This document shows, one piece after another, positions 27,779 through 52,288 of a stretch of 52,288 nucleotides of DNA (position 1 is the first letter of the stretch; every line of letters starts with the position of its first letter). The stretch lies in sequence record DRR723986_9343; one strand, given 5' to 3'. The position numbers and the translations under genes are program-made. Below the pieces are notes generated by a model. The model made no database searches. It was not told the origin of the DNA and was given only the letters and a program-made list of their open reading frames with translations.

Positions 27779-29833
27779 CTATTCCGCTGTGTCCAAATAA
27801 GGATCTTGGCCGATCTCACGCTGCATTTTCGTGCGTTCTCGTTCGTGGTGCAGCAGCATCATCCGATCTCGGAAATGCTTCCTCTCGACGCGTCGTTGGG
27901 CTTTTCGAAACAATGGGGCCCAAGAGTGAAACGGACCGGCGCTGTTCCGCCCTTGTTCGGCGTACGCTTCTGCCTTTCGATTGCCATATCCTCCGCGAAG
28001 GATGTCGTCATCGAGTGAAAGGAATTGTCGATAACTACCCGGGTCGCCTTGACGTCCACAGCGTCCGATCAACTGCCTGTCGATTCGAGCGGCATCGTGA
28101 AGTTCGGTGCAGATGACATGCATCCCGCCGATCTCTCGGATGTCATCTTTGAGCTTCACGTCCGTTCCTCGACCGGCCATATTGGTCGCGACGGTCACCC
28201 GTCCGCGCTTGCCCGCTTCGGTAACAATCTCGGCCTCACGCTCGACTTCGTTCGCATTGAGCACCTGGTGTTTGATACCAGCGTTCTCGAGCATCTTGGA
28301 CAGCACCATCGACTTGTCGATCGAGCGCGTTCCGATCAGGACGGGCCGGCCTTGTTCGTTCATCTCACGAACTTCTTCGACGATTGCCTCAAACTTTTGC
28401 TCCATCGTGCCAAAGACTTGGTCCTTCAAACGTTTCCGCTGTGGCGGGCGGTTGGTCGGCACTTCCACGACGGGCGTCTTGTAGATCTTTCGTAGTTCAG
28501 GAGAACTGGTTGAGGCGGTACCGGTCATTCCAGCCAAGTGGCGGTAGCGCTGGAACAAGTCCTGCACCGTGATTCTCGCCGCTTGCCCTGTCGGCACGCT
28601 GACCTCGATTCCCTCTTTCGCTTCGATGGCTTGGTGGATTCCATCTCGCCACTTCCGGCCCTCTGCCAATCGACCAGTAAACTCATCGACGATCACGATT
28701 TCGTCATCGCGAACCACGTACTGTCTGTCGCGGATAAACTCAGTGTGAACTTTGATGGAGCGTTCGATGTAGTCATACAAATCTACAAGTGGAACGACTC
28801 GCATGACATCCTCGCGTGGAAGTGCTCGCACAAGCGAGCGGCCTCGGGAGGTAAGTTCAATTTTGCGGGTGTCGTCTTCCAGGGTGTAATGTTCTGCGAA
28901 GTCAAACTTGTCAGCATGTTCGCTGGCCCATCGAAATGTCGCGATGACTGTGTCCCGCGTTTCGTCGCCTAGGGACCCAATGATCAACGGTGTCCGGGCT
29001 TCGTCAATTAGAATACTGTCTGCTTCATCGACTAGAGCAAAGTGCATTGTTCTTTGAACAGGCTCATCGCCAGAGCTGCTCCAGCGTTCCATGCTGCCTT
29101 CCCCGAGGAAGTCGCTTTGGATTCGGCCCTGGGCACGCAGGAGCAAGCGGTCACGCAGGAAGTCGAAACCGAATTCTTTGGCAGTCCCGTAAGTGATGTC
29201 GCAAGCGTAGGCCTTGCGGCGATCGTCCTGCGAGCTGTCGGTTAAGACAATTCCGACCGTTGATCCCAGTGTTTCATAAAGCGGGCGCATCCAATCGGCG
29301 TCCCGTTCGGCAAGGTAGTCATTCACCGTGGAAAGGTGGGCACCGTGTCCGGCAAGCGAGTGGAGATACAGTGGCAGGGTCGCCGTTAGAGTTTTACCTT
29401 CCCCGGTTTGCATCTCGGTAATGCAGCCATCGTACAGAGCTGCGCCGCCGGTGATCTGCACATCAAAGTGACGCATCCCGAGTGATCGTCGTCCTGCCTC
29501 GCGGACGAGCGCAAACGCCTCAGGGAGAATGTCCCCGAGCGACTCACCGCTCATCGCGCGGTAGCGGAGCGAACGACTCTCCTTTTTGAGTTCACCCGGT
29601 GTTAGCTCGCGAGTCCGCGCCTCGAGCGATGCGACTTTTTGTAAAGCTGCTAGCCAGCGGTTGAGTCGTATTTGGCCGGCACCTGGAACTGCCCAACCGG
29701 CCGCGATACGAGGCTTATTGGGAAGGCGACCACTGTCGGAGGGAATGGGAGCTGCCATGGCTGCCGCAACTTGATCGGCAACGACCGGGTCTGTTGGGTC
29801 AGTATCGGTATGCGCGGTAGATAACTCGTTCAT
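27779..29833 (-). CDS. Secondary SecA-like ATPase (SecA_DEAD), C-terminally shortened
   Basis: EMQTGEGKT (Walker A), TVNDYLAERD, FGFDFLRDRL, VDEADSILIDEARTPLII, IVDEFTGR, GMTGTA, VATNMAGRGTD, RIDRQLIGRCGRQGDPG. Only 684 aa, ending about 85 aa after the GRQGDPG motif. Confidence 0.92.
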   Translation of the reverse strand: MNELSTAHTDTDPTDPVVADQVAAAMAAPIPSDSGRLPNKPRIAAGWAVPGAGQIRLNRWLAALQKVASLEARTRELTPGELKKESRSLRYRAMSGESLGDILPEAFALVREAGRRSLGMRHFDVQITGGAALYDGCITEMQTGEGKTLTATLPLYLHSLAGHGAHLSTVNDYLAERDADWMRPLYETLGSTVGIVLTDSSQDDRRKAYACDITYGTAKEFGFDFLRDRLLLRAQGRIQSDFLGEGSMERWSSSGDEPVQRTMHFALVDEADSILIDEARTPLIIGSLGDETRDTVIATFRWASEHADKFDFAEHYTLEDDTRKIELTSRGRSLVRALPREDVMRVVPLVDLYDYIERSIKVHTEFIRDRQYVVRDDEIVIVDEFTGRLAEGRKWRDGIHQAIEAKEGIEVSVPTGQAARITVQDLFQRYRHLAGMTGTASTSSPELRKIYKTPVVEVPTNRPPQRKRLKDQVFGTMEQKFEAIVEEVREMNEQGRPVLIGTRSIDKSMVLSKMLENAGIKHQVLNANEVEREAEIVTEAGKRGRVTVATNMAGRGTDVKLKDDIREIGGMHVICTELHDAARIDRQLIGRCGRQGDPGSYRQFLSLDDDILRGGYGNRKAEAYAEQGRNSAGPFHSWAPLFRKAQRRVERKHFRDRMMLLHHERERTKMQREIGQDPYLDTAE

Positions 29834-32432: not shown

Positions 32433-32502
32433 ATTTCAATTCCCAAATGGATGGGGACATGCTGATTTAGCAATTCGTTGTTTTCGACGAGCGACAAATC
32501 TT

Positions 32503-34239
32503 CTACTCGTATCGCAGGGCTCGCACGGGATGCATTCTCGCAGCTCGAATCGAAGGCAGAACACTAGCTAGCACTGCAATGCCAACGGCTCCGACCATGA
32601 CCCAAAATACCATCCAAGGGTGAACAATTGTCGGAATCGAATCAAAGTAGTACACCGTTGGGTCGAAGACCTCTTGACCGGTGACAACTTCCAGCAGGTC
32701 GGCAACTTCGTTGATTTTTGCGACGAAGATCAAACCGGCCACTGCACCGACGCCTGCACCGAAGGTGCCCAGCAGGACTCCGTAGCCGATAAACACAGAA
32801 GCAACGCCTTGGCCACTCGCCCCTAGGCTCTTGAGGATACCGATGTCTTTGGTCTTCTCCACGACGATCATGAAGAATGTTGCCAAGATGCCAAATCCTG
32901 CGACGGCGATGATCAGGAACAACAAAATGTTCAAGATGGTCGTTTCCATTTGGACGGCAGCCAAGAGTGGCCCTTGAAGGTCGCGCCAGGTGTTGATGCT
33001 CAGGCCGGTTTCCCGCGCCGGGTACGCTCGCCGAAGCGTATCGCGTACTAGATCAAGATCTGCGCCTTCTTTCAGTTTGAGTTGGATTGAGCTGATTCCG
33101 TCCTGCATGCCCCGAGCGGCTTGCAGACGCTCAAGTGGAACGAAGGCGAAGGAGGAATCATATTCGCTCATCTGGCTTTCGTAAAAGTCGACAACCGTGA
33201 AGCTCTCAAAGAGTGCCTCCGGACGAGAGCCCGCCGACGGGAACGTGATTTGAACGTCGTCACCAGGTCGAGCGAAATAGTGGTCTACGACTTCGCCGTC
33301 CATGCGATAACGCGTCGAAGCGATGCTGATTCCGAGAACGACGCCCGTGTGTTGCGTCGTTTCTGGATCAAAAATTGCAGCCGCTTCTTCCTCGGCAGAG
33401 ATGACTTGGTCGAATGCCGGAGCAGAATTGTTGCTCCCGACGGACACACCTGAGCTTGTACCAGAGGCAAGCGTGCCGACCCCGGAGCTGCCCGTTGGGT
33501 CGTCTTGATAGGGTGACGGTGGAAAGGCGAGGGTGTTGTCTTGGCTACCGTCTATCGCGGCCGTATCTGCAGAAGTTGGTAACGCAGATGCTAGCGGTTG
33601 TTGTAGTGTTGAGGCTGCATCAGTGGCCATGACCGGTGGCTGTTGAGGCATTTGGGCCTGCTTCTGCATGGACGCATCGATGGATGCCTGGAGTCGCTCG
33701 TTCCGCTCCATGACTTCGCGGATTCGCTTCTGCTGTTTGGCTTTGATGCGGCGGAACGTCCACCCAGATGCTGGGAATTGATCTCTGCCAGGAGCGTAGC
33801 CACTATCGTGTAGCTCAAAGGAAATGTTCTCGCGGTTGTCCGGGTGTAGCAAATACTGGCGGAAATCGCTGACATCGGCGTACGTTTCAGTATCAATTCC
33901 GATCAGGTTGAGTGGCCGTGTGATTTGCTCACCTTGGTGATCGATGTTGATCATCGCGGGCACGTGGACGACGGTCGTCATTCCTGCCAATTGATCACCA
34001 ACGAGCTGGCGGATTCTTTGTTGGACCTGTTCGTGCTCTTGAAGGCCGCTTGAGGCATGGCTTTCGATAACGATGTCGGACAGAATTCCATGCATCCGCT
34101 CCTGCATCTGAGTCGTGAAGCCGTCCATGACGCTGTTGACGATAATCAGCGTAGCGACTCCCAGAGTCACGCTAACGACACTCGCCAGGGCGATGTAACG
34201 GGTGCGTAGATATCTCCAGCACAAGAGCCATCGATACAT
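32503..34239 (-). CDS. LolC/LolE-type (FtsX/MacB family) ABC permease with low-complexity insertion
   Basis: RYLRTRYIALASVVSVTLGVATLIIVNSVMDGF, LIIAVAGFGILATFFMIVVEKTKDIGILKSLGA, VYYFDSIP, RAARMHPVRALRYE. Confidence 0.88.
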   Translation of the reverse strand: MYRWLLCWRYLRTRYIALASVVSVTLGVATLIIVNSVMDGFTTQMQERMHGILSDIVIESHASSGLQEHEQVQQRIRQLVGDQLAGMTTVVHVPAMINIDHQGEQITRPLNLIGIDTETYADVSDFRQYLLHPDNRENISFELHDSGYAPGRDQFPASGWTFRRIKAKQQKRIREVMERNERLQASIDASMQKQAQMPQQPPVMATDAASTLQQPLASALPTSADTAAIDGSQDNTLAFPPSPYQDDPTGSSGVGTLASGTSSGVSVGSNNSAPAFDQVISAEEEAAAIFDPETTQHTGVVLGISIASTRYRMDGEVVDHYFARPGDDVQITFPSAGSRPEALFESFTVVDFYESQMSEYDSSFAFVPLERLQAARGMQDGISSIQLKLKEGADLDLVRDTLRRAYPARETGLSINTWRDLQGPLLAAVQMETTILNILLFLIIAVAGFGILATFFMIVVEKTKDIGILKSLGASGQGVASVFIGYGVLLGTFGAGVGAVAGLIFVAKINEVADLLEVVTGQEVFDPTVYYFDSIPTIVHPWMVFWVMVGAVGIAVLASVLPSIRAARMHPVRALRYE

Positions 34240-36540: not shown

Positions 36541-38349
36541 CTAACGCGTGGCACCAAGATAGAAGCTGAAAATCTGGCGGTCGTCCGTGTCGGCCATCAG
36601 AACGGGATAAGCGAAGTCGAGTGCCAGTGGGGCTGGTCCAAGTGCCGGGACGCTCAATCGCAGCCCGGCTCCAAGGGAAAGCCGAATGTCATCGCTCGTG
36701 ATCGTAATGTCCCGTTCGACCGTTCCCGCGTCAGCAAACAACACGCCTCGGTAAGAGTCGTCGGGCGTAATCGAAAAACCATACTCAAGGCCACCCAAAA
36801 GCATGAATTCGCCGCCAACCTCAACATCCATGTCTCGAGGACTTGCACCTCGGAAGTCGAAGCCACGTAGTGAACTCAGGCCGCCTGCATAGAAGTTCTC
36901 AAAGATCGGTGTCTGCGAACCAGTCACACCCAGACGCACAAACGATGAAAGTGTTTGCAATCTTGCGCTGGGATCCGCCCGGTCGCTTCCAACGATTCGG
37001 TGGTTGCTCCAATTGATCTGGCCACGTGAAAAATCATACTCACCAAATACCTGATCAAAGACCAACTCCAGCAAACTGCCTTGTCGAGCCAAGAAGGGCG
37101 AGTCACGTGTGTCATGCGCTAACTTGAATCGGGCACGGTACACGTCGTTGCTTCCGAGAGCTGCATCCAGGTCCGCTACACCAGCCTGACTCGGGCGAAA
37201 GATGATAACATCTTCCATGCGAAGTTCAGAACTGAAAGACAAGTTTCGAGTAATCTCGGTTCCAAGCTGAATGCGACCTCCGCCACGTTGTTCGTCCCAA
37301 TTGCGGAGTTCACGCGTATAATAAAACCCGCCAAGGGAAAGGCTATACGGCAGGTTGCCGAATAGGTTTGGTTGGGTCCAATTCACGCTGTAACGCTGGA
37401 CTTCGTTCCCCGGTGTCAACTCAATGCGTAGAAGCTGCCCGCCGCCCAAGAAAAGGTTGGGTCCTGGGGTCCACTCCCGCCAATCAAAGTTGCGTTCTTC
37501 CAGAACGATTTGTCCGGCCACGCCAAGTTCGCTGTTGACCGTTCCGCCGAGCATGATTCGACCAGAACGTCGCTCTTGGAGATAGACATCAATTGGTGCA
37601 ATGCGTTCTCCGGGAGCCAACGGTTGTGGAACCGCACCTGGTGCCGCCGAGAATGCATTTGGATTCCCAGGTCCCGCCAGTGCGCCGGGAGCCAACAAAT
37701 TGTTAAAGTCACTTGGGCTCGTCTGGAATCCTGGTTGGAAACCTGGTTGGGGTTGAGCAAGTGGAGGTCCGAAGGCTTGCGGCGCGTTGTTGGGCACGAA
37801 TGTCTGATTGGGGAACTGCTGACCGGAAAACCGTTGGCCTGCAAACGGTTGAGGCTGTCCTGGGACAAATCCACCGACTTGCGGCTGATTCACCTGTGGC
37901 GGAACGCCATTGAAACCACCTTGACCGCCAAAGCTACCCGGCGGAACTCCACCGAACGGCTGCGCAGCCGCTCCCGGTGGTGAGAAAGGTGGCGCGGATT
38001 GAACCGGAGGAAAGCTCTGCACGCTTGGCGGTTGATAGCCGGCTGGTCGAACCCAGCCAATCGGCACGCCACCTCTGGAGGTTCCGCTTGCTGGCAGATT
38101 CGTGCCGGTATTCCGATTCGCACTTTGGCTACCGCCGAATGCTGGATAGTTCTGGGAAGGATTTTGATTCGCACCCGGCTCGGAAGCTCGCATCGGCGTG
38201 CGATATAAGTCGCTGGTCCCGGCGGTTTGATTGTTCCATTGACTTGGCTGCCCCGATCCCTGCTGCGCGCAGCACGCACCTGCACTGAATGCGAATGCAA
38301 ACAGTACAAACAAAGCAGTGCCTAGCAAACTAGCCCGTGATCTAGCCAA
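36541..38349 (-). CDS. Omp85 (BamA/TamA) family outer-membrane protein with low-complexity N-terminus
   Basis: Barrel motifs ERNFDW, GGGQLLRIELTPG, HDTRDSPF, FYAGGLSSLRGFDFRGASP, VGGEFMLLGGLEY, FADAGTV, PAPLALDFAYP, QIFSFYLG; signal peptide present. Confidence 0.87.
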   Translation of the reverse strand: MARSRASLLGTALFVLFAFAFSAGACCAQQGSGQPSQWNNQTAGTSDLYRTPMRASEPGANQNPSQNYPAFGGSQSANRNTGTNLPASGTSRGGVPIGWVRPAGYQPPSVQSFPPVQSAPPFSPPGAAAQPFGGVPPGSFGGQGGFNGVPPQVNQPQVGGFVPGQPQPFAGQRFSGQQFPNQTFVPNNAPQAFGPPLAQPQPGFQPGFQTSPSDFNNLLAPGALAGPGNPNAFSAAPGAVPQPLAPGERIAPIDVYLQERRSGRIMLGGTVNSELGVAGQIVLEERNFDWREWTPGPNLFLGGGQLLRIELTPGNEVQRYSVNWTQPNLFGNLPYSLSLGGFYYTRELRNWDEQRGGGRIQLGTEITRNLSFSSELRMEDVIIFRPSQAGVADLDAALGSNDVYRARFKLAHDTRDSPFLARQGSLLELVFDQVFGEYDFSRGQINWSNHRIVGSDRADPSARLQTLSSFVRLGVTGSQTPIFENFYAGGLSSLRGFDFRGASPRDMDVEVGGEFMLLGGLEYGFSITPDDSYRGVLFADAGTVERDITITSDDIRLSLGAGLRLSVPALGPAPLALDFAYPVLMADTDDRQIFSFYLGATR

Positions 38350-40852: not shown

Positions 40853-41737
40853 CTAAAAATTGTAGCGGGGATTGTTGCGGTCGAAATCTTTGTCCGTCAG
40901 GCCAACGTTGAGCTTGATGTTTTGATACGTGTACTCTTCCATAATCTGTCCCTTGGTGCTGCCAGGGGAAGTCGGCCAGTCGTAAGCACAGTAGCGAACG
41001 GGAATCTGGTACTCGTTGTCGATGAAGATTTCGGCTTGGTAGAAATCGAAGTACGACCGACGAACTGGGTGCTCTACTTTCAAAACGGTGCACTCACGAC
41101 GGCCAACTTTGGCACCTTGCAAGAATTCAACCTTGCACTCACCACGCTGCCTGTCTCGCTCACCCTTTTCGATCAGCTTGGCAACCAGATTTTCAATACC
41201 CACTTCAGTGATTGGGTAACGCTGGCCCCGCATCGCCATCATACCGTTCGGATCCAGATCAACGGTCGGCAGGAACTTTCCTCTCACACCGCCCTCGTGA
41301 GCGACCAACTTGCCGTTGTTCTGATTCTCGACATAGATTACTTCACGTCCCTTGACCGAGGCGGGCTTCAGGAACGTCATGTAGACGCTGAATGGAGTTT
41401 GGACGCGTCCGTTGACCGTTTTTCGGTTTCGGACCTTCACGCCCATATACTCGTATTCGCCGAGCGTTCCGCCTACAAGCTCTCGCTTGATCAGAATGGC
41501 CGTGTAGTCCTTAATGTTCGCTTGAACGTTCTTCAGACTGGCGTACGCGATTCGTAGTGCCGGATCAAGTGGGTGTTCTTGCTCGACACGAGGCGCACCG
41601 GAGGTACTCTTAGAAATACGTGCTACTGGTTCTGTCGTTCCTTGCGGTGGCTCTTGAGCCACTGCGGGCAAGGCCAGTGCAGCCGAACCGAAGGCGGCCG
41701 ATACGCTAAAGAATTTTCGACGGTCAAATGGCTTCAT
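40853..41737 (-). CDS. DUF1571 domain protein with Tat signal peptide
   Basis: DRRKFF twin-arginine leader ending AVA; IKDYTAILIKRELVGG, PFSVYMTFLKP...GREVIYVENQNNGKLVAHEGG, RYPITEVGIENL, EEYTYQNIKLNVGLTDKDFDRNNPRYNF. Confidence 0.85.
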   Translation of the reverse strand: MKPFDRRKFFSVSAAFGSAALALPAVAQEPPQGTTEPVARISKSTSGAPRVEQEHPLDPALRIAYASLKNVQANIKDYTAILIKRELVGGTLGEYEYMGVKVRNRKTVNGRVQTPFSVYMTFLKPASVKGREVIYVENQNNGKLVAHEGGVRGKFLPTVDLDPNGMMAMRGQRYPITEVGIENLVAKLIEKGERDRQRGECKVEFLQGAKVGRRECTVLKVEHPVRRSYFDFYQAEIFIDNEYQIPVRYCAYDWPTSPGSTKGQIMEEYTYQNIKLNVGLTDKDFDRNNPRYNF

Positions 41738-42225: not shown

Positions 42226-44505
42226 TTAGCCTGACGTCAGGTCGAATTTTTGTTTGAACAGCAGGAATTTGCGCCACAGCGCGGTAGCCGCGGAATGGTG
42301 CGACGCGGCAAAGGTAACGAAGCAGCGCTGGCCAGACTTGAGCATTTGGCTGCGTCGGTGGTCCAGGCTAATGTAGGCTTTCACGCAGGGCGATTCCAGT
42401 TCCGGATCGGCATCCGGACGTTGTACAACTGGAAGTGGACCACCCAGCATGGCAGACAAAGATTCATCTGGAATTTCGAGGCTGGCGCGTGATTCAAGAC
42501 GATCGATCGCATCATCCCAACGAACTTGCCCAGCGACATCCACGACGACCTTCAAAGAGTCTGGGGCGAAAGCCACCGGAGCCAATACTTCTGCGACGGC
42601 GTCTTCTTCCGTCGCAGTTGACGCATCAGAAGAGGCTTCCGACGCAAGCATACTTGCGGCTCGCAATTCTGTAACATGATTCGCTGGCATCGCCAACAAG
42701 ATTCGCTTACGGCTGTCGTCACCGACCACTGCTAACTCAGCACCAGCTTCGAAATAGCGACCTTGCATCTCTGAAAAGTTCCTCGCAACAACATGACCGT
42801 CGACCGGTGAACGAACCTGCAGTGATTGAAGACGCTTCTCAAGATTCGCTAAGTGTTCCGACAACGCTCCCAACTCAGCCTTGGCCGAGGAGCATTCGTT
42901 GGCATCTTTGCTCCACTGGGCTGCTAGCAGTCGCTGTTTTGCTTTCGCATGGTCGACCCGAGTTTTCGCGATTTCAAGGTGTAATTCTCTGTCTTGCATT
43001 TCCAGCAGCAAGTCTCCCGCTTGGACCCGACTACCGCTGCTCACAAAGACTCGACGTACAAAACCGTCCTCAGGAGCTCGAATGACCGCCGGTGGATCAA
43101 ACTGCACAACGCCCGCAATCGAGCCGCCGAGCTGGGGATCTATCAAACCGGCTGGCAGTAAAAACAGACTGGCGAAAGGTAGCAAGAACACCATTGATAG
43201 CCGCAAGAGTAACTTCCCAGGCTTCGGCGCTTCGGCAGATGACCTAACGTCGTCAATCAATCGTTGCAGTGGTCGAACTGCGAATAGATAGGCACCAACG
43301 GCAGCCACGATCCAGCCGAGTGGACCGAAGAGTACAACAGAAGCGGTTAGGATTCCGACCTGGAGCGCGGATCGACAGAAGGATGCACCGACCGCATAGA
43401 CGGGAATCCACTTTCGGTGTTGCCTAGGCATCTCGGGTGGTCTGGACGCGATTCCAAGAATATGTCGCTTTGCCCAATAAGCTAGATACTCGCGAGAACG
43501 ATCGTACAAATTGTCGACGCCAGTTAAATCGCTGAACGCGTAGTAGCCGTCGAATTTAAGCAGTGGGTTTAGGTTACACACCAGCGAGCTGACCGCCGCC
43601 ATTGCAACTAAGTCAACCAGTGCAACTCTCAGTGCAGGTGATTCGACCCAACCGAAGCCGATCGCGGCCAGTGAGGCCAAGAGTAACTCGCTGCTGACAC
43701 CTGCTAACGAAACATGCAATCGCTTCCATCGGCGATCGAAACGCCAGCTACTTGTCACGTCCACGTAGGCAAGCGGCATGAGGAATATGAACGCAAGTCC
43801 GGCATCCTTGACCTCTCCACCGTAACGTCGGCAAGCGGCTGCGTGTGACAATTCATGGATTGCCTTCAACAGAACCCAAATGCACAGGAGTTGGATGCCG
43901 CGACTGGGAGTTACCAAGAAAAAGTAGTCCTGCTTCAGCGAGCCGAAGCCGCTGGCAGCAAAACACCCGCCAATGAACAACAAGACTAGCTTCAATACTT
44001 CAGCCTGCCAGCTAAAGAGGCAGCCGATCGACGGCATTACCCTGTCGAGCAGTTTTGTGGGGTCGCCAAGGGGAAGTCGCCAGTAGAAAATCGTGCCAAC
44101 AGCGCCAACAAAACCGCCAACCTCGTGCGATTCTTGCTGCTGAGCGGCGGCCGATTCAATGGGGGATTCGATACTGCCGGCCTGCTCCGCATTCTCGCCG
44201 ACTGCCGCGGGCGCAACAATGTTTTGTTCAACTAACCAGCCCAGTAGTTGCTCTGCGGCGGCGAATTGATTCTGTTTCTTGGCGGCGTCTTGTCCTTGCT
44301 CAGCAAGCTCTTGCAGGAACGCTCCTTCCTTGGGGCCCAGCCGAAAATACTCACCCGTAGTGGTTTTCTCGACGTGCAGATTACCGCCGGACTGAGGATG
44401 CAGGCGAACATCGCGGGCAAGGGCTAGGCCGCGTCCTGAAGCAGACCGTTGCGTTCCAGGAGGTTCGGCAGCCAGGATTGGATTTGAAACGTTCTCTTGC
44501 ACCAT
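42226..44505 (-). CDS. PqqD/RRE-like domain, site-2 (M50) protease and HlyD/biotinyl-lipoyl membrane-fusion domain fusion
   Basis: N-terminal LHVEKTTTGEYFRLGPKEGAFLQEL; HELSH at 43843-43857; YVDVTSSW; NLNPLLKFDGYY; IRAPEDGFVRRVFVSSGSRVQAGDLL...VRSPVDGHVV. ATG 44505 overlaps the upstream stop (TAATG). Confidence 0.87.
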   Translation of the reverse strand: MVQENVSNPILAAEPPGTQRSASGRGLALARDVRLHPQSGGNLHVEKTTTGEYFRLGPKEGAFLQELAEQGQDAAKKQNQFAAAEQLLGWLVEQNIVAPAAVGENAEQAGSIESPIESAAAQQQESHEVGGFVGAVGTIFYWRLPLGDPTKLLDRVMPSIGCLFSWQAEVLKLVLLFIGGCFAASGFGSLKQDYFFLVTPSRGIQLLCIWVLLKAIHELSHAAACRRYGGEVKDAGLAFIFLMPLAYVDVTSSWRFDRRWKRLHVSLAGVSSELLLASLAAIGFGWVESPALRVALVDLVAMAAVSSLVCNLNPLLKFDGYYAFSDLTGVDNLYDRSREYLAYWAKRHILGIASRPPEMPRQHRKWIPVYAVGASFCRSALQVGILTASVVLFGPLGWIVAAVGAYLFAVRPLQRLIDDVRSSAEAPKPGKLLLRLSMVFLLPFASLFLLPAGLIDPQLGGSIAGVVQFDPPAVIRAPEDGFVRRVFVSSGSRVQAGDLLLEMQDRELHLEIAKTRVDHAKAKQRLLAAQWSKDANECSSAKAELGALSEHLANLEKRLQSLQVRSPVDGHVVARNFSEMQGRYFEAGAELAVVGDDSRKRILLAMPANHVTELRAASMLASEASSDASTATEEDAVAEVLAPVAFAPDSLKVVVDVAGQVRWDDAIDRLESRASLEIPDESLSAMLGGPLPVVQRPDADPELESPCVKAYISLDHRRSQMLKSGQRCFVTFAASHHSAATALWRKFLLFKQKFDLTSG

Positions 44506-45923
44506 TACCACCCAAACAGTCGGCGAAACATCAAGTATGGTTTTCGCAGCAGAATTGTTCCAACGGCGCGGTATCCGACGTCGATCTTGGCGTTCCCTCG
44601 CATGCCAGGGCGGATCTTGTGATCGGTGTTCTCAATCTCTACTTCACCGATAAATACACTGCTCTTATCACGAATTTCGCTACGCGGATGCAGGCGAGCG
44701 ATGTTGGCTGAGATGGTTTCGTTCGGCAGCGAGGTGAGATAGATTCTGGTCGGCGCCGAATCGTCTATGTCTGTGATCTCCTCTTCCGGGATGGCCAGTT
44801 CGACGCGTATTCTGTCCAGCGGAGCGATTTCGAAAAGCTCGTTGCCGATCGCCAACGACGCGCCTTGGATTCCGTGTAGATCTCCAGAAACGACAACCCC
44901 GTCAATGGGTGATCGGATTTCAGTTGCATCGATTTGCTGCTGAAGTTGTGTGATGACCTCTTGCAGTCTAGCGACCTCGAAGCGCTGGATTCCTGCCTCG
45001 GCAGCATCCCCTTGCGACAGTGCCGTGTGGTGCCGCTGTTTTGCCTGCAGCAACTCCGCTTCCGCCCCGGTAAGCTGGCTCTTCAAGTGATCCGAATCCA
45101 GCGTCGCCAGCAGGTCGCCTTTTGCGATGGATTGACCTGGCACGACGTAGGTCTTTGTTAGTCGCGAGTCGAAGGGTACACTGACGATTCTGCGGTTGGC
45201 CGGTTCACAAACGGCGTCACAGTTGAGTTTATACGGCCAAGGACAGGAACCCAGAAGACAACAGGCAATACAACCGATTGCGACTTTCTTAGCAGTAGAC
45301 AGATTGGCCAATTTCCACCAGGTTCGCGTGCTCTTGTTGGAAACAGCCTCGTTCTTACTGACGCTATCAGGCTGGCTTTCCAATTCTGAGATGCGCGCGT
45401 GGGCAACGAGAAGTGCCATGCGATTGGCGGCATTCTCGATGGTCGATTGAGGAAGCGACATGCTGCCGCCTGCGGCTGTCTGTTGTCGAACAAAGCTAAG
45501 CGTGGTGTCTGGTTCGAATGGTAGAACACGCGACACAACGACCAAAGACGGATCGCCGGTTAGAACGCGTGTCATTACGTTCTGCGTGCGAACGGCCACT
45601 TCGCAATTGTCTTCGATGTCCGCTGTCCAAGCGTCCTCGAGGACGTTGCTACGGTAAAGAAGCTTGATCGTCTCAGTGGCGGCATCGAATCGCCAAAGTG
45701 AAACTCCAAGAGCGCCGGCGTGCCTGGCTAAACGTTCCAGTTCACCTGAAAAGTCCAGGTTCTGAGTCACCGTCGTCGACGCGACTCCGCGCGGAGCGTC
45801 TGGTAGGCCGTTTTCTGATTCTTGTGTTGCGTTGATCCGCTCAAAGTAGGCCGATTTGCCATCTCGGTACGGATTGCCGGATGCCGGTGCATTCGTGCGT
45901 GTAATGGCTGATGGCATCGGCAT
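44505..45923 (-). CDS. HlyD-family periplasmic adaptor with N-terminal cytoplasmic GAF-like region
   Basis: One hydrophobic segment (VAIGCIACCLLGSCPWPY), then VSVPFDSRLTKTYVVPGQSIAKGDLLATLD, coiled hairpin, IRSPIDGVVVSGD, LFEIAPLD, IRPGMRGNAKI. The GAF-like call for the N-terminus is tentative. Confidence 0.85.
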   Translation of the reverse strand: MPMPSAITRTNAPASGNPYRDGKSAYFERINATQESENGLPDAPRGVASTTVTQNLDFSGELERLARHAGALGVSLWRFDAATETIKLLYRSNVLEDAWTADIEDNCEVAVRTQNVMTRVLTGDPSLVVVSRVLPFEPDTTLSFVRQQTAAGGSMSLPQSTIENAANRMALLVAHARISELESQPDSVSKNEAVSNKSTRTWWKLANLSTAKKVAIGCIACCLLGSCPWPYKLNCDAVCEPANRRIVSVPFDSRLTKTYVVPGQSIAKGDLLATLDSDHLKSQLTGAEAELLQAKQRHHTALSQGDAAEAGIQRFEVARLQEVITQLQQQIDATEIRSPIDGVVVSGDLHGIQGASLAIGNELFEIAPLDRIRVELAIPEEEITDIDDSAPTRIYLTSLPNETISANIARLHPRSEIRDKSSVFIGEVEIENTDHKIRPGMRGNAKIDVGYRAVGTILLRKPYLMFRRLFGW

Positions 45924-45974
45924 TTCAGGGTGAAGACAGAAAACTAGAGACGTGTGTCGAAATGGAATTGTGAC

Positions 45975-46056
45975 TTGCCCCGGACTTCATGTCCGGGGCA
46001 ATTGGAAGCCGAAGCGTCAGCGAGGTGGGGGGAGAATCTTTCTTCCTCGCTGACGC
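45975..46056. repeat. Two adjacent GC-rich inverted repeats (REP-like)
   Basis: TTGCCCCGGAC-ttcat-GTCCGGGGCAA (45975-46001) and GCGTCAGCGAGG-N19-CCTCGCTGACGC (46014-46056), both perfect stems. Confidence 0.75.
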
Positions 46057-46125
46057 GTTGAGTCCTTTAGTGAGTGAAAATTTGCCGCGTTAAAATCTAC
46101 CGTGCCAGACAGGCGTTATGCCGGC

Positions 46126-46977
46126 CTAGTGTTTCGTCGAAGCAAGCTCATGCTGCGGAGTGCTTTCGCCAGACTTGAGTGTGATTTGACAGCGACGGCC
46201 AGCGCTAAACTCACCTTGTTTGTTGTCGATCTGCACCCGTACTTCGATCGTATTGGTTTCTGCTTGAGGGTACGGAGCGATGAAGCTGACTTTGCCAGTG
46301 GTAACTCGCCCTGAGCTGATGAATTGGACTTCTACAGAGTCGTCCGCGCTGAGCGATTCTGCCGCGTGACTTGGAATCAAAAAGTCAACGCTAAGAACTT
46401 TCAGTTCGGCGACCGTGCACACATGTGGATCGGCTTGTCCAACCCATTCCCCTTTCTGTTTCGCAAAATCGATGACGACACCATCAAAAGGAGCCTTTAC
46501 AGAGAATTGCTCCGCCTGCGCAGCAAGCTTCCTGTACTCCGCTGCATACAATCTCTTTGCTTCGTGCGCTTCTTGCAAACGGGATTCAGCCTTCGCCAAC
46601 TCGGTCTCAGCGCGATCAACTTCGTCAATCGAAGCATGAGAGCGGTCTGCCAAGCCTTGCAGAATCTCCAGCCGGCGGGCTGCTGTGTTTAGGTCGACCT
46701 GGGCTCCGGTAAGTTTGGCGGAAGCTTCTGAACGTAAGCGAGCGATGTCCAGCCCCCGACTAAATACTTCGGAATCGATCTTGGCCAGCGACTGGCCTTC
46801 ACGAACGGTAGCGCCGGAGGCAACAATGTGCTCCAGGACAACGCCTGGATTCGACGCAGCGACTTTGGAAACACGATTTGGGCGACTGAAACCATCAACC
46901 ACTATTTCACAATGTGCCACCGAAGCAGCAAGCATCGCAGTTGTTAGTGAAACGGAATGGATGAGTCGGCTAGACAT
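46126..46977 (-). CDS. Efflux RND/HlyD-type periplasmic adaptor subunit (signal peptide)
   Basis: MSSRLIHSVSLTTAMLAASVAHC leader; VAASNPGVVLEHIVASGATVREGQSLAKID, VKAPFDGVV, GKVSFIAP, VRVQIDNKQGEFSAG. Confidence 0.85.
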   Translation of the reverse strand: MSSRLIHSVSLTTAMLAASVAHCEIVVDGFSRPNRVSKVAASNPGVVLEHIVASGATVREGQSLAKIDSEVFSRGLDIARLRSEASAKLTGAQVDLNTAARRLEILQGLADRSHASIDEVDRAETELAKAESRLQEAHEAKRLYAAEYRKLAAQAEQFSVKAPFDGVVIDFAKQKGEWVGQADPHVCTVAELKVLSVDFLIPSHAAESLSADDSVEVQFISSGRVTTGKVSFIAPYPQAETNTIEVRVQIDNKQGEFSAGRRCQITLKSGESTPQHELASTKH

Positions 46978-47246
46978 TCGAGTCTCCGCAGTAAGTACAC
47001 AGTCGAGGTTGCGGCCTCGGCAATGATTCGGTTTATTATGAGCACGGAGAAACGTAGACCTTTCTAAATAGAGTGGCGATTGCATGGAACGCGAGGGGCC
47101 GCTTTGGCGCAATACCGCCAGCGGGTGGTGCAGGTTATAGGAAGTTTGGCGATCGAGCTATCACAGGCATGAAGTGTCCAGGAGTACTGCGATTTGCCGC
47201 ACCAAGAAGGACGCGATGAGGTTCAAACGCTCCATCATTGTTTAGT

Positions 47247-47263
47247 TGCAGAGATGGTGCCAA
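47247..47263 (-). promoter_or_regulatory. Candidate sigma-54 (-24/-12) promoter upstream of the adaptor genes
   Basis: Minus strand TTGGCACCATCTCTGCA gives GG-N10-GC and differs by one base from TGGCAC-N5-TTGC; intergenic and oriented toward 46977. Confidence 0.5.
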
Positions 47264-47294
47264 CGTGAAAGAAATAAAACCGTAGTCTTGCGGC

Positions 47295-49313
47295 TTAGCG
47301 CGAGAAGCGAACCAGCGCACCGGTTGCGACTTGGACATTGATGACAGCGCGGTTGAGATCTGTCAGGGCGCTCAGGACGGCCTGCTCTTGCTGGAACAAT
47401 CGATCCTGCGTGCCGAGTAATTCGTCGAGTTGGAATTGGCTAATGTTTGGATCACCCTGCAGCTTTTTCCAACGAGCCTCCTGGTAATGCAACTCTTCGT
47501 TCACCGCTGCCAACGCCCGCTGACGAATGGCAGTTTCCTCTCGAGCCGCCTCAAGCCTTGCTAGCGCAGACTCAACTTCAGCCTGAACATTGGCTTGACG
47601 CTCTGCAATTAGATTCTCGATCTGGTGCAACTGCACGGCTTGTTGTCGCAAACGCGCCTCGGCCGCACGATTCTTATAGGGGACCTCAAATTCAAGACCA
47701 CCTGCGTAACCAGGTTGTCCTCGCGAAAACTGATCGGCCCACGCACGTGGCACATTGCTATTGCCTTGCAAGCCAGCAACGTAGCCTTCGATCACTAAAT
47801 CGAGCCGAGGTTTGACTTGATTCTTGGCTAGATCAAACTGCACGCGTGCGACGGAAAGCTGGTGTCTAAGCTGGGCGATTTCGGGATTCCGCTGGAGCGC
47901 GGCGGCGACTTCGGCATCGGCATTAAACTGCGGAACGTCAGCGGCGGCGGTCTGAACCGGAATAATCTCGAGGTGCGAGTTATCGCTGATTCCTGGTGTG
48001 TTGATTAGTGAACGAATCCTTGCTTCGGTGGAAGTGATTGAAGCGGCCACGCGAGTAATTGCGGCCTGCCGTGAGGCCTGAGCCACCTCGGCGCGTAAGA
48101 TCTGGCTCTTGCGGGAATCCAGAGCATCGCGAGCGTTCAAAGTCTTTGCAACTTCCTCGGCCCGTCGCAAGTGCTCATATCGCTGCAGCAGCGTGGCACG
48201 GTGAAAATATAGTTCCCAGTAGGCATCGCCGATTCTACCAAGCTGCGTAACCACGGCCGACATATATTCGGCGCGGGCAACGTCGGATTCGATGCGAGTG
48301 GTCAAAATCAGGCTTCGATTTTGGTCGATTTGGCGATTCCGCATCAGCGGCTGATTCCAAGCGACGCCAAGCCGCGCCGTACCCTGATCGTTCGGCGCTA
48401 TGAAAAGCGAGTTGCTGTTCAGGTGACCTAGTTGCTGACCGACGGAGTAGTCCGCACCAGTACTCGTTTGACCGCGAACACCAGCGTTCATCGACCATCT
48501 GTTTTCCAGTAACCTATTGGGACCACCAGTCGTTAGCTGGTCTCCAACGGGATCGCTGGTGTCATCGTACCTCGTATTCAAGAACAGAGTTGGATCCAGT
48601 CCCGCCTTAGCAGCCAGGTACTCTTCGCCACGAATCCACTGTGATTGCTCAACAGCCAGAACCCGTCTCGAATTGTGAACTGCCGATTGCATCAGTCCGC
48701 CTAGATCGACTTGAATCGACTCAGGTGCAGCCAATGGCTTGGTGACATGTTCGTTCCACCAGGGAGAAAACGCTGGTGGTGGCGTGACCGGAAGAGCTTC
48801 TTGGGGAACTGTTGCTAGGTCGTTAGGGAACGGTGTTCCAGTGATTGAGAGTTCTGGCGGTGACGATGGCAATGGCGTGTCGCCGCTGTGCTGCTCCAGG
48901 ATGGAACCACTGGGCGGATGCGGTGCAATCGACTCAAGCATTAGGCCCGGCTGTTGGGCCAACTGCAGGGTTGATTCCTGGCCTTGCTGTGGGCTCTCGC
49001 CGCTGGCCGGAATGCTGGAAACCGCTACGCTTGCTGGCCGGTACCAAGCTGGTACTTGCGGCAGGTCCAGCGGGTTGGTGGCGCTGTCACCGCTCTTGCG
49101 CAAGTTCCCTTGACGCAGGGGCTGTACGCGTCCAGCGCTGCCGCGTAGTCCGTGCGTTCCCTGACCACTTACTGGAAAGGGGGAATGACGGTTGCGGTCG
49201 GCCTCCTGCCCTTGAGCGTAGGGCAATACGCTCAATAGCAGTAGACTCATCATGATGTGTGTGGTTGCATTTCTGGGGCGGCGAAATGGTCTTAATACCA
49301 TTGCCAGGTCCAT
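47295..49313 (-). CDS. TolC family outer-membrane channel protein
   Basis: GGAGG RBS, signal peptide, Pro-rich extension, then LGVAWNQPLMRN, DAYWELYF, AALQRNPEI, AKNQVKPRLDL, GLEFEVPYKNRAAEA, VQVATGAL. Confidence 0.88.
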   Translation of the reverse strand: MDLAMVLRPFRRPRNATTHIMMSLLLLSVLPYAQGQEADRNRHSPFPVSGQGTHGLRGSAGRVQPLRQGNLRKSGDSATNPLDLPQVPAWYRPASVAVSSIPASGESPQQGQESTLQLAQQPGLMLESIAPHPPSGSILEQHSGDTPLPSSPPELSITGTPFPNDLATVPQEALPVTPPPAFSPWWNEHVTKPLAAPESIQVDLGGLMQSAVHNSRRVLAVEQSQWIRGEEYLAAKAGLDPTLFLNTRYDDTSDPVGDQLTTGGPNRLLENRWSMNAGVRGQTSTGADYSVGQQLGHLNSNSLFIAPNDQGTARLGVAWNQPLMRNRQIDQNRSLILTTRIESDVARAEYMSAVVTQLGRIGDAYWELYFHRATLLQRYEHLRRAEEVAKTLNARDALDSRKSQILRAEVAQASRQAAITRVAASITSTEARIRSLINTPGISDNSHLEIIPVQTAAADVPQFNADAEVAAALQRNPEIAQLRHQLSVARVQFDLAKNQVKPRLDLVIEGYVAGLQGNSNVPRAWADQFSRGQPGYAGGLEFEVPYKNRAAEARLRQQAVQLHQIENLIAERQANVQAEVESALARLEAAREETAIRQRALAAVNEELHYQEARWKKLQGDPNISQFQLDELLGTQDRLFQQEQAVLSALTDLNRAVINVQVATGALVRFSR

Positions 49314-49581
49314 GGATTCCTCCGGTTATGTGTTTCCTATAGGGGGATCGACATGCCCCAGCGGAAGAACCAGGAATCAAAACACCCGTCGTACAAACGC
49401 GCTAAGCCGCAAATCTTGCCCAGAAGTTTCGTCTTAGCCCGCGAAACCCCTCAAACCGCTTCCCCCGTTCGGGTTATTTAGCGTCCCGTCGCCGGGTGCT
49501 CGTCTCTCATCGCTTTTCAGAGCCAATAATTCGAACAGGGCATAAGAAGACGATTAGGCAGAATTCTTCAGGACAGTGGGC

Positions 49582-52288
49582 ATGGCTGGACTCGGGCAGC
49601 ATCTCAAGTGGTTATTTTCGGCAATCGATAAGGGCAATACGGACGCCACAGATAGGCCAGCCCAGCTCGATGTTGCCAAACTGGAAAAGCGCATTCTCTA
49701 CAGCGCCAATCCGCTGATGCAGCCTACCGAGCTCATTGATCATGCTGCTGTAGATAGCGCTGGCGCTGATTCTCCCAGTAGTGCTCAAACAGCGACCTTG
49801 CCCCCGCCGGTAGATTGTCCCGAGTGCCCAGAGGCGAATCAAGATGATTCCGACACCCCAGAAGAATTGCACGCTGTTCTTCCTCCGTCGGGTATCGGCA
49901 ATACATCGATAATATTCATCGATCCTGCGGTGGGCGACTACCAAGAATTAATCGACGGAGTGCTTGAGACACACGACGATCACAGTTCGTTGCGCATCGT
50001 GCTATTGGATGCCAATCGTGACGGCATAGAGCAGATATCTGAGGTCCTCGCCAACTCCTATAATGTCAATTCGGTGCACGTTTTTGCTCATGGAAGCTCT
50101 GGTAGTCTAACGCTTGGTGGGGCGACCCTAGATTCCACCACGCTGTCGAACTACTCAGGTGAACTGGCGCGTTGGGGCAACGCTCTCGACGCGGATGCGG
50201 ATATCCTGATCTACGGTTGTGATTTTGCCGACCAAGAAGGCGAGCTTCTTGTTGAGGCGATTGCAGAACTGACGGGAGCTGACGTTGCTGCGAGCGCCGA
50301 CTTGACTGGGCACGCGGAGCTCGGAGGCAACTGGGTGCTCGAAGTTTCGGCTGGGTCGATTGAAACCGATGTTGCAGTCAGTCTAGAAGTGCAGTCGCAG
50401 TGGCACAATGTTCTGGCAACCTACACAGTGACAACGACAACTCGCAATGTCGCCGGCTCGCTGGGTTGGGCAATTGCAGATGCTAATGCAAATCCTGGCC
50501 TCGATACGATCGTCTTCGATCTAGCAGGCACAGGAGTCCACACTTTCTACACGGGAAGCATCGGTTTGCCAAGCATAACCGACCCAGTAATCATCGACGG
50601 CACAACTGACGATAGCTTTGCGGCCAACGGTAACTCACCGGCAATCCTGGTCAATGGCGGTGCTTTTGCCAATACTGGCATCGAGCTAACCCCTGGAGCG
50701 AGCGGTTCAACCATTAGAGGCTTGGCCATCGGCAACTACTACCAGCTGCCTGCCATACATATCCACGCTGGATCCAACAACAACACCATTGTCGGGAACT
50801 ACATCGGGGAACTTGACGCCAACGGAGAGGCAAGCGCAGGGACGATTTACACCAGTGTTGGGGTCTTAATCGAAGGGGCCAACAATACCATCGGCGGAAC
50901 GACAGCCGCGGACCGAAATGTGATTTCAAGCAATCATGTTGGGGTAGAGGTTCATGGCAGTGCAGCGACGGGAAACCAGATCATTGGAAACTTTATCGGT
51001 ACAAATGCCCTCGGCAACGCGGCGGCGGAGAATGAGACCTACGGTGTGCATCTGCGTGTTGGCGCTCAAAACAATACGATCGGCGGTAGCGGTGCGGGCG
51101 AAGGGAACGTGATCTCTGGCAATGCTCAAATGGGAGTCTACATCTCAGGGGAAGACACCGATAACAATACGATTCAAGGAAACAAGATCGGTGTCAATGC
51201 AGCTGGCACTGATGTGCTTGCTAACGCATCAAGGGCAATTGGCATCGGTTATGGCCCTGATGGTACCCTGATTGGCGGCCCCACCTCCGATTCTGGAAAC
51301 TGGATCGCTGGTTCAGAAATGCAAATATTTATCTTCGGTGCTTCTACAGACACAGTTATTCAGAACAATACGCTCGGAACTGATTTAACTGGAACCGCCA
51401 ATTGGGGCGCAGCCGAATCTGGTATCTACATCGTAGATGTTAACGGTCGTTCGCCGCAAATTCAAATTCTGCAGAATACAATTGCCTTTAGTGGACAAGT
51501 TGGAGGACCTGGGGGCGACTCCGGCATCGCATTTTTTCAAACGGTGGGCAATGAACACACTATCCTCCAGAATTCGATTTACGGGAGTACCGGCTTAGGA
51601 ATCGACCTTGCCGAGGATGGAGTTACAGCGAACGATGAAGGGGACGGTGACTCGGGCCCGAACAATCGACAGAATTTTCCGGTTTTGAGTTCCGCAACCA
51701 CCATTGGGTCGGATACCGTCGTGGTCGGGAGTTTGAATTCTACCGCGTCGACATCGTATCGTATCGAGTTCTTTAGCAGTCCATCAGGACACTCTACGGG
51801 GCACGGTGGGGCGACAACGTATCTCGGATTCATCAATGTTACAACGGATGCGTCTGGGGACGCTACCTTTTCAACAACGCTGGCCGGTGTAGCGGTTTCG
51901 GCAGGCCACGCAGTAACCGCAACTGCGACGGTGGATTACGGTAACGGCAACTACGGAGGCACGTCAGAGTTTGCCGCCAACACTTTGGTGATCGCTGGAA
52001 ATGCCGCCCCTAGCGGAACACCGGCAATTGCAGGAACCGCAACCGAGAATCAAACACTGACGGTTGATACTTCGGCGATCAACGATGGCGACGGACTTGG
52101 AACGTTCAGTTATCAGTGGCTGCGTGACGGAGTAGCGATCACCGGTGCAACGAATTCGACTTATACACTTGGTGATGCTGACGTTGGTTCGCAGATCAGC
52201 GTTCAAGTTTCTTATACCGATGGTAATGGCAATAGCGAAGGGCCCCTAACTTCCGATCCAACCGCAGCGGTATCGAATGTCAATGATA
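49582..52288 (+). CDS. Giant extracellular protein (3'-truncated): LEPR-XLL-like leader, DUF4347, parallel beta-helix, Ig/cadherin-like module
   Basis: Hand translation from ATG 49582 stays open to the window end (902 codons): MAGLGQHLKWLF...KLEKRILYSANP...IIFIDPAVGDYQELI...VHVFAHGSSG...DILIYGCDFA...LTGADVAASADLTG...GGNWVLE...NNTIGGTTAADRNVIS...GLGIDL...NFPVL...YRIEFF...TENQTLTVDTSAINDGDGLGTFSYQWLRDG. Absent from the ORF track because there is no stop. Confidence 0.9.
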   Translation, partial: MAGLGQHLKWLFSAIDKGNTDATDRPAQLDVAKLEKRILYSANPLMQPTELIDHAAVDSAGADSPSSAQTATLPPPVDCPECPEANQDDSDTPEELHAVLPPSGIGNTSIIFIDPAVGDYQELIDGVLETHDDHSSLRIVLLDANRDGIEQISEVLANSYNVNSVHVFAHGSSGSLTLGGATLDSTTLSNYSGELARWGNALDADADILIYGCDFADQEGELLVEAIAELTGADVAASADLTGHAELGGNWVLEVSAGSIETDVAVSLEVQSQWHNVLATYTVTTTTRNVAGSLGWAIADANANPGLDTIVFDLAGTGVHTFYTGSIGLPSITDPVIIDGTTDDSFAANGNSPAILVNGGAFANTGIELTPGASGSTIRGLAIGNYYQLPAIHIHAGSNNNTIVGNYIGELDANGEASAGTIYTSVGVLIEGANNTIGGTTAADRNVISSNHVGVEVHGSAATGNQIIGNFIGTNALGNAAAENETYGVHLRVGAQNNTIGGSGAGEGNVISGNAQMGVYISGEDTDNNTIQGNKIGVNAAGTDVLANASRAIGIGYGPDGTLIGGPTSDSGNWIAGSEMQIFIFGASTDTVIQNNTLGTDLTGTANWGAAESGIYIVDVNGRSPQIQILQNTIAFSGQVGGPGGDSGIAFFQTVGNEHTILQNSIYGSTGLGIDLAEDGVTANDEGDGDSGPNNRQNFPVLSSATTIGSDTVVVGSLNSTASTSYRIEFFSSPSGHSTGHGGATTYLGFINVTTDASGDATFSTTLAGVAVSAGHAVTATATVDYGNGNYGGTSEFAANTLVIAGNAAPSGTPAIAGTATENQTLTVDTSAINDGDGLGTFSYQWLRDGVAITGATNSTYTLGDADVGSQISVQVSYTDGNGNSEGPLTSDPTAAVSNVND

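Follow-up and report, generated by a model that had tools for sequence, protein, structure and literature searches.

Gene content of the locus

The window considered here is a stretch of 52,288 nucleotides from sequence record DRR723986_9343, of which the last 10 kb carry a gene cassette for the presumed export of a giant repeat protein. Four genes on the minus strand code for a TolC-family channel, two adaptors, and a fusion of an RRE domain (recognition element of RiPPs, peptides made by the ribosome and modified after translation) with an M50 membrane protease and an HlyD-type adaptor. The gene of the giant protein, which bears an N-terminal LEPR-XLL-type tag, starts divergently from them. 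The locus is real and is not a canonical type I secretion system. Its features, together with a candidate motor gene elsewhere in the window, are as follows:

42226..44505, minus strand: RRE-M50-HlyD fusion, 759 aa, with a cytoplasmic RRE, about six transmembrane segments and a C-terminal periplasmic-adaptor domain
44206..44427, minus strand: RRE (PqqD-like leader-binding) domain of the fusion, with structure matches to leader-bound RREs
44505..45923, minus strand: adaptor 2, 472 aa, with one divergent GAF-like domain, a likely membrane-crossing helix and an adaptor domain
46126..46977, minus strand: adaptor 1, 283 aa from the ATG at 46977, HlyD_D23 (E 1e-20), with a signal-peptide-like N-terminus
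47295..49313, minus strand: TolC-family outer-membrane channel (TolC/OEP), PF02321 (E 7e-17)
49314..49581, no strand: divergent intergenic region of 268 nt between the TolC gene and the giant gene
49582..52288, plus strand: putative cargo, 5' part, 902 aa in view, with leader, DUF4347, beta-helix-like repeats and the start of Ig-like repeats
49681..49707, plus strand: LEKRILYSA, a LEPR-XLL / Planc_extracel-type tag, residues 34-42 of the giant protein
49909..50415, plus strand: DUF4347 domain (E 4e-54) with His-Gly and Tyr-Gly-Cys motifs
27779..29833, minus strand: truncated SecA, 684 aa, with SecA_DEAD, PP_bind and P-loop, stand-alone

All open reading frames (ORFs) behind the minus-strand order of the initial annotation (TolC, adaptor, GAF-like adaptor, RRE/M50/adaptor fusion) were confirmed. 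The coupling described for the last two genes was found as an overlap of the adaptor 2 stop codon with the M50 start codon (TAATG at 44507-44503), and the giant gene lies divergently on the plus strand, 268 nt from the TolC gene. The starts of adaptor 1 (46977), the M50 fusion (44505) and the giant gene (49582) were refined from the sequence. The cluster contains neither an HlyB-type ABC gene nor an RND gene, again in agreement with the annotation. The closest named homologue comes from an Aureliella sp. (41%), and the host is probably a planctomycete of the class Planctomycetia.

The RRE-M50-HlyD fusion

The structure of the fusion was taken from an AlphaFold model with a mean pLDDT of 85.5. 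Residues 26-101 of the model, comprising the RRE, matched TbiB1 with its leader (5v1u; Z 10.9, root mean square deviation (rmsd) 1.9, 73 aligned residues) and, as a second match, a lasso B1 protein with leader (6jx3; Z 10.3, rmsd 1.6, 72 aligned). Judged from this modelled fold, the domain would bind a leader. PF05402 was annotated on 4 of 48 homologues. For the membrane part, RseP (7w6z) gave a Z of 10.4 over 131 residues at an rmsd of 2.9, SpoIVFB (8vjl) a Z of 10.3, and residues 454-737 matched MexA-type adaptors with a Z of 14.0; in the Foldseek search with the fusion, the match list was filled by adaptor-domain matches. Both zinc-ligand motifs, HELSH (217-221) and NLNPLLKFDG (311-320), lie within the RseP/SpoIVFB-fold membrane domain, as is characteristic of an M50 site-2 protease. 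Of the NCBIfam models, that of the daptide RRE-protease (NF041824) came nearest, with an E of 3e-45, but its 155 bits stayed below the cut-off of 300.

The zinc-motif residues H, E, H, N, N, P and D were invariant across 43 aligned sequences. In 151 fusion loci, HExxH was determined in 150 and NxxPxxxxDG in 144. Since 80 of these loci had been retrieved with a pattern containing NxxPxxxxDG, the unbiased set consists of the 71 genome-derived fusions, with HExxH in 70 and NxxPxxxxDG in 64 of them. Such a conservation argues for a working protease, i.e. for predicted activity.

The widespread module to which this gene set belongs was described computationally by Kamneva, Poudel and Ward in 2015 as a locus of secondary SecA_DEAD, Peptidase_M50-HlyD, GAF-HlyD and HlyD genes, with or without OEP (PMC4452313). 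No ABC was present there, SecA was suggested as the ATPase and the M50 protein as the pore, and some members were encoded apart from SecA; the accessible text of that paper names no cargo, tag, RRE or protease activity. The reference to this work in the initial annotation was correct, and its idea of an M50 pore matches the published proposal, so that this idea is not new. The modelled leader-binding RRE fold and the intact protease site indicate that the M50 protein is more than a pore. With both zinc motifs kept behind the RRE fold, a role as receptor and leader peptidase is favoured, and as a pore only possibly.

Another type of fusion, RRE-M50 without the adaptor part, was observed in frames of about 1,130 aa (G058:C32:8001-9341 and G054:C189:25580-26872).

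The giant protein and its tag

The ORF of the giant protein starts with the ATG at 49582 and runs off the window end. Its size is deduced from relatives, namely orthologues of 2,246 and 2,277 aa, the former with cadherin-like repeats, and its repeat types were read from the sequence; a PDB sequence match was not obtained. On the first 60 aa alone, NF012209 (LEPR-XLL) reached 18.5 bits at residues 34-50, compared to a cut-off of 17, and with the full ORF of 904 aa it gave no match at E 0.01. The best 11-mer hydropathy was 0.59 compared to 2.72 for TolC, which bears out the annotated lack of a hydrophobic Sec signal.

The His-Gly and Tyr-Gly-Cys motifs of DUF4347 are 42-43 residues apart in 13 of 19 copies, with one invariant Cys. 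This pair resembles the His-Gly / Gly-Cys dyad of clan CD (caspase-like) cysteine proteases, and DUF4347 may possibly be an autoprotease; by profile, no protease structure was matched. The PDB entry 9qpe_G is a DUF4347 protein.

A contig of 37 kb from another run (X3) is about 95% alike over 50236-52288 and ends on the identical base, and short contigs accumulate at 52071-52239. The shared end and the accumulation of short contigs point to an assembly break in repeats at the window end. Upstream, the 37-kb contig diverges within DUF4347, which suggests shuffling among giant paralogues.

That the tag might be a novel export signal was put forward in 2004 (Studholme et al., as cited in PMC8567305). 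For T. immobilis, the accessible data list 52 tagged proteins, 20 of them detected by proteomics; 8 were seen only in the SDS-soluble (sodium dodecyl sulfate) fraction, likewise the stand-alone short SecA, and 8 of the 10 longest proteins carry the tag (PMC8567305). In the protein table of that source, no fusion was identifiable by Pfam labels.

Very long frames were also observed near or related to cassettes: G194:C9:89031 (minus strand; 14,624 aa), G284:C1:2649610 and 5044844 (9,529 and 8,182 aa), G091:C7:98341 (7,068 aa) and G136:C12 (>7,822 aa).

Co-occurrence of fusion, tag and neighbouring genes

By profile search, the fusion was found in 43 of 151 genomes of the phylum. The cut was clean, with a best E below 1e-100 in all 43, followed by 1.7e-53 and then 3e-23 or weaker. 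NF012209 matched 17 of the 151 genomes, all of them among the 43 with fusion (p 3e-11, in genomes that are kin), and a 22-residue tag profile (xLExRxLLxA) matched 33, of which 32 have the fusion. In genomes that were not used for building the tag profile, it matched 16 of 27 with fusion compared to 1 of 108 without. DUF4347 was present in 17 genomes, 15 with fusion; PF07595 was present in 2 of 151, both with fusion, and is too insensitive for use. For the nearest family, 200 of 201 genomes had the fusion, and for the class 198 of 201; none of the 57 class genomes with the strict LxExLEDRxxP pattern lacked it. A loose ExLExRxxP DNA pattern was discarded as tag detector, being no commoner than its reversed control, while the stricter pattern worked in the class sample. 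Gemmata-type genomes with tags but without fusion, considered as a further case, were not borne out by that sample.

The tag motif occurred in residues 1-130 of 24 of 1,308 ORFs compared to 1 in residues 201-330. For 33 neighbouring pairs, tag distance tracked M50 tree distance (rho 0.49, 0 of 2,000 permutations), which points to joint inheritance and not to binding. Neighbours were counted within 10 kb of the 82 well-flanked loci, i.e. those with at least 4 kb of flank on both sides: adaptor 2 was present at 75, adaptor 1 at 69, SecA at 43, a tagged ORF at 30 and an ABC ATPase at 8. No conserved exporter-type ABC was found near the 151 fusion loci.

The co-occurrence of fusion and LEPR-XLL, proposed as a check in the initial annotation, thus came out positive (17 of 17 and 32 of 33 genomes). 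Together with the missing exporter-type ABC it supports the idea, put forward there, of the giant as cargo of an ABC-less, TolC-linked export module. That the cassette exports tagged proteins can be considered likely.

Adaptors and TolC

Adaptor 2 of the window is a short form, the usual form having 600-700 aa and two GAF domains. Its adaptor part is clearly homologous to GAF-HlyD proteins, while the GAF part is weak: the protein has no Pfam GAF match of its own, and GAF profiles from the long homologues gave an E of 0.19. The same profiles gave 1.5e-4 on its two closest orthologues, and the order of helices and strands in the model is compatible with GAF; in the GAF fold search, the match list was filled by the adaptor domain. 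Of the 'GAF-like adaptor' named initially, the adaptor therefore holds, and the GAF domain is only weakly supported in the window copy. Adaptor 1, with its short and hydrophobic N-terminus, is probably a soluble periplasmic adaptor. The TolC protein is 38-45% identical to TolC of three orthologous cassettes.

Candidate motors

An HlyB-type ABC was found neither in the window cluster nor in three orthologous loci, and neither an ABC nor a SecA gene adjoins the orthologues of the window cassette. Near the window cassette, the sole ABC is a LolD/LolE-like pair (31638-34239, minus strand), whose permease contains a long low-complexity insertion; both proteins remain below the NCBIfam cut-offs. Situated 8-10 kb downstream, it was considered as a pump and rejected, because it is described best by LolCE and LolD (below cut-off) and the cassettes have no conserved ABC next to them.

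Ordinary type I secretion would demand an HlyB-type ABC elsewhere in the genome or just past the window, where the sequence beyond 52288 is out of view. Candidates exist in related genomes, as in each of five genomes without short SecA 4-8 matches to ABC_membrane were counted, a part of them within frames of 720-950 aa, and DUF4347 is also reported from RTX-repeat proteins (PMC13723633). However, the gene following the complete giant gene in two orthologous loci codes for a signalling enzyme and not for an ABC. None of the 11 ABC ATPases within 10 kb of fusions other than the window's has an ABC_membrane match (4 cut by locus ends), the window's own ABC is LolD/LolE-like, and no RTX nonapeptide occurs in the 902 aa of the giant in view, its C-terminus lying beyond the window. 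Altogether, this explanation is very improbable.

The reading as 'pump-less' in the initial annotation is weakened. The cassette itself contains no motor gene, but the annotation missed the truncated SecA of 684 aa at 27779-29833, and the family usually comes with a short SecA (43 of the 82 well-flanked loci). In this SecA, GEGKT and DEAD are intact and a wing/scaffold match is missing; the gene lies on the same strand as the fusion at a distance of 12,392 nt. A short SecA_DEAD protein without wing/scaffold, at most ten genes off or elsewhere, belongs to the module of Kamneva et al., and is present here, though outside the operon. As a conserved cassette part it was rejected, since its orthologues (60-79% identical) are 122-690 kb away from the nearest fusion in five of five relatives. 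They stand alone in all five, and the proximity of 12.4 kb in the window may be due to chance, selection being the alternative. In four of the five, the orthologue adjoins a BBP7 gene, as in the window, where the truncated SecA (27779-29833, minus strand) and a BBP7 beta-barrel gene (30147-31517, plus strand) form a divergent pair.

Of the 82 loci with SecA in the fetched region, 81 have it no farther than 3.4 kb from the fusion, which makes the window the outlier. At least two SecA matches (raw counts) were obtained in 32 of 43 fusion genomes compared to 6 of 108 others, with 3 of the 32 representing one gene matched twice. Close relatives have 6-9 fusions compared to 3-5 short SecAs per genome, so that sharing would be needed if SecA drives all of them.

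Export could also proceed in two steps, in which SecA (short or housekeeping) and SecYEG carry the protein across the inner membrane, the RRE-M50 part is a dedicated signal peptidase, and adaptors and TolC serve the outer-membrane step only. Genomes without short SecA do retain the housekeeping SecA, adaptor 1 looks like a soluble periplasmic protein, and to our knowledge no M50 protein forms a protein-conducting channel. Against this, the tag has no hydrophobic core for SecY, and the nearness of SecA to the fusion, seen in 81 of the 82 loci with SecA in the fetched region, suggests that the two are dedicated partners. Moreover, the short SecA lacks the wing/scaffold region, which has been linked to SecYEG contact in the accessible text of PMC4452313. 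Export in two steps is therefore regarded as rather unlikely.

A SecA-less variant with a short adaptor

Altogether, the window cassette is a SecA-less, single-GAF-like variant of the module predicted in 2015 and probably an accessory, cargo-linked copy of it. Orthologous cassettes in G284 and G161 comprise the same TolC, adaptor 1, short adaptor 2 and fusion with a divergent DUF4347 protein (2,246 and 2,277 aa, LEDRILYSA). By SecA identity, G194 is the nearest relative. No giant adjoins its cassette; the only DUF4347 match in that genome is in the 14,624-aa frame about 66 kb upstream in divergent orientation. DUF4347 as a marker of the SecA-less subtype was rejected, since DUF4347 proteins also flank SecA-bearing cassettes. 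The layout varies in other genomes: the giant is co-directional with TolC in G104 (G104:C1:385511), three tandem DUF4347 tagged genes of 676-695 aa lie within the cassette in G054 (G054:C403), and G033:C21 is a further variant.

The distribution of the two forms of adaptor 2 (two GAF domains in the long, one in the short) was compared with a midpoint-rooted FastTree tree, from which 4 of the 151 fusions were excluded as too short or without HExxH. The remaining 147 fusions divide into 16 with a short adaptor 2 (linked SecA absent in 12, present in 3, unscorable in 1), 97 with a long adaptor 2 (linked SecA present in 60, absent in 21, unscorable in 16) and 34 with no complete adaptor 2. A linked SecA is accordingly absent from 12 of 15 scorable short-adaptor loci compared to 21 of 81 long-adaptor loci (p 1.2e-4, the loci not being independent). 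Most SecA-less short forms belong to one of two clades. That of the window has a support of 0.998 and lies within SecA-bearing DUF4347 loci, the other has a support of 1.0, and two separate losses of linked SecA appear likely from the tree.

The absence of a linked motor might be taken for the absence of any motor, as in the initial annotation. The M50 fusion and adaptor 2 would then form a conduit without ATPase, and either the proton motive force or folding outside the cell would power export. The single contigs of G133 and G147 have the exact layout of the window and only one SecA gene, and the short adaptor 2 goes together with absent linked SecA in two separate clades. In addition, both cleavage and export of its peptide are presumed for the M50 protease EpeP (PMC10885120, accessible text). 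Nevertheless, the window genome and the five searched relatives all encode short SecAs, the housekeeping SecA could serve, and the 21 long-adaptor loci are without linked SecA as well. Furthermore, we know of no channel design with about six transmembrane segments and an intact protease site. A conduit without ATPase is consequently quite unlikely.

Directly 3' of the DUF4347 giant, an HD-domain gene was observed in both SecA-less clades, coding for PAS-GGDEF-HD in G161 and FHA-GAF-HD in G147 (L224:17645-19999 and L062:17840-19447), and similar signalling genes occur in G284, G088, G104 and G133. These neighbours are hinting at a control of the cassette by cyclic di-GMP (c-di-GMP). They would also fit a device for processing or release, in which the M50 protease clips or frees an adhesin exported otherwise, controlled by GAF and c-di-GMP; LapG/LapD offers a loose analogy for such a c-di-GMP-controlled adhesin release, and the protease site is intact. 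On the other hand, three adaptor domains and TolC are hard to explain without transport, and an RRE at the cytoplasmic N-terminus, as the predicted topology has it, would meet the tag before export. Hence, a mere release function is improbable.

Proposed export mechanism

The preferred explanation, which we hold to be slightly favoured, is a leader-directed export. In a first step, the giant, still unfolded, would be bound at its xLExRxLLxA tag by the cytoplasmic RRE of the fusion. The M50 fusion and adaptor 2 would form an inner-membrane complex, into which a SecA-type ATPase in trans would then thread the chain with its N-terminus leading. This second step is the weakest; the motor would most likely be the truncated SecA at 27779-29833 or a paralogue, or the housekeeping SecA in genomes without short SecA. 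Thirdly, the M50 zinc site would remove the tag, as reported for MpaP with daptide leaders and by analogy with C39 peptidases. Finally, the three adaptor domains would, from their homology, bridge to TolC, and the protein may fold outside as a surface adhesin or matrix protein. Taken singly, binding of the tag by the RRE and clipping by the M50 protease are fairly probable, and a SecA-type motor in trans has somewhat better than even prospects.

Several observations weigh against this mechanism. The short SecA is not obligatory, as the single contigs of G036, G122, G133 and G147 have a fusion without any short SecA, and 14 of 43 fusion genomes have a single SecA gene (9 of them re-searched at E 0.001). 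The absence of a wing/scaffold match also leaves the mode by which a short SecA would push the chain unexplained. The hint from the SDS-soluble fraction of T. immobilis is weakened, since E. coli SecA was enriched in the same fraction of that dataset (PMC8567305, accessible data). No match to the tag profile was obtained in 11 of the 43 fusion genomes, and only 32 of the 82 well-flanked loci have a TolC gene within 10 kb. As the genomes are kin, co-occurrence and Mantel counts are not independent and their p values overstate independence; the Mantel signal is explained equally well by co-transfer of neighbouring genes. The view of the host genome is limited to the window, with other paralogues out of sight. 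In the literature searched, from which subscription journals were mostly absent, neither an experimental study of the module nor a paper linking the tag to it was found, in line with the initial statement that no mechanistic characterisation of any member was known.

A wider claim can be made tentatively, and we consider it possible with the odds somewhat against it. The cassette would represent a distinct one-step pathway and the missing LEPR-XLL / Planc_extracel exporter across Planctomycetia and other phyla, in which the core of RRE-fused site-2 protease binds, cleaves and conducts, the truncated SecA is shared or dispensable, and linked SecA and one GAF domain were lost twice. The tag marks many of the largest bacterial proteins, for which no exporter is demonstrated in the papers found. 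If the claim is true, that exporter is a machine which 198 of 201 sampled genomes of one class possess, and it combines leader recognition as in RiPP pathways with an intramembrane protease, adaptors for TolC and a shortened SecA. The SecA-less cassettes would be a natural experiment on what powers export.

Surroundings of the cassette

No sigma-70-like site was found in the 268-nt intergenic region 49314..49581, promoter and terminator scans gave chance level only, and the GC content showed no island signal. Downstream of the fusion follows, after a gap of 488 nt, a co-directional gene for a DUF1571 protein (40853-41737, minus strand), whose N-terminus carries an RRKFF motif similar to a twin-arginine signal; no homologue of it was found in the searched flanks of related loci. 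An Omp85-family protein (36541-38349, minus strand) has a long Pro/Gln-rich N-terminal region, and the BamA model matches its barrel only. At E 0.001, no Pfam family was matched by the ORFs 21803-25702 (minus, 1,299 aa), 26585-27595 (minus, 336 aa), 25852-26514 (plus, 220 aa), 15349-17043 (plus, 564 aa) and 9759-10916 (minus, 385 aa).

Comparison with known systems

Compared to type I secretion (HlyB-HlyD-TolC and the exporters of giant adhesins), the locus shares adaptors and TolC beside a giant repeat protein without Sec signal, whereas a dedicated HlyB-type ABC is missing from the cluster. It further differs in having three adaptor domains, a SecA-like candidate motor, and a zinc intramembrane protease instead of C39. 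In peptidase-containing ABC transporters, it is the C39 domain of the membrane component that removes the N-terminal leader.

The arrangement of an RRE before an intramembrane M50 domain is the same as in the RRE-fused site-2 proteases of RiPP pathways, i.e. daptide MpaP and EpeP. MpaP reportedly cleaves off a leader in which an ELExMEAP motif is conserved (10.1101/2023.03.08.531785, accessible text). In contrast to these, the protease is fused here to a periplasmic adaptor, its neighbour is a protein of several thousand residues and not a short precursor, and no modifying enzymes were seen.

The giant protein shares its N-terminal motif with LEPR-XLL (NF012209) and Planc_extracel (PF07595) proteins, for example Cag_663/665 of Chlorobium chlorochromatii and the surface proteins of T. 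immobilis, to which no exporter is assigned in the accessible parts of the papers found. A preprint from 2026 describes two LEPRxLL giants of Chlorobium (36,806 and 20,647 aa) that are transferred into the partner bacterium and have no known transport signals. C-terminus-first export via SapC/TolC/HlyD is proposed there, and the accessible text does not mention M50 (10.64898/2026.03.19.712371). C. chlorochromatii is on the genome list of Kamneva et al. (PMC4452313), where Methylobacterium extorquens AM1 and Ruegeria pomeroyi are recorded as having the module.

The closest likeness is to the module of that study. The Peptidase_M50 protein with an HlyD domain and the HlyD/biotin-lipoyl protein were found here, the three adaptor-bearing proteins and TolC (optional there) are the same, and an ABC is likewise missing from the locus as far as 52288. 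In contrast, the window cassette has no SecA, SapC or cluster-5 gene, and its adaptor 2 has one GAF-like domain instead of two. Added here to the earlier prediction are the tested link to the tag, the RRE together with an intact protease, the near-universality in the class, and the genomes without short SecA.

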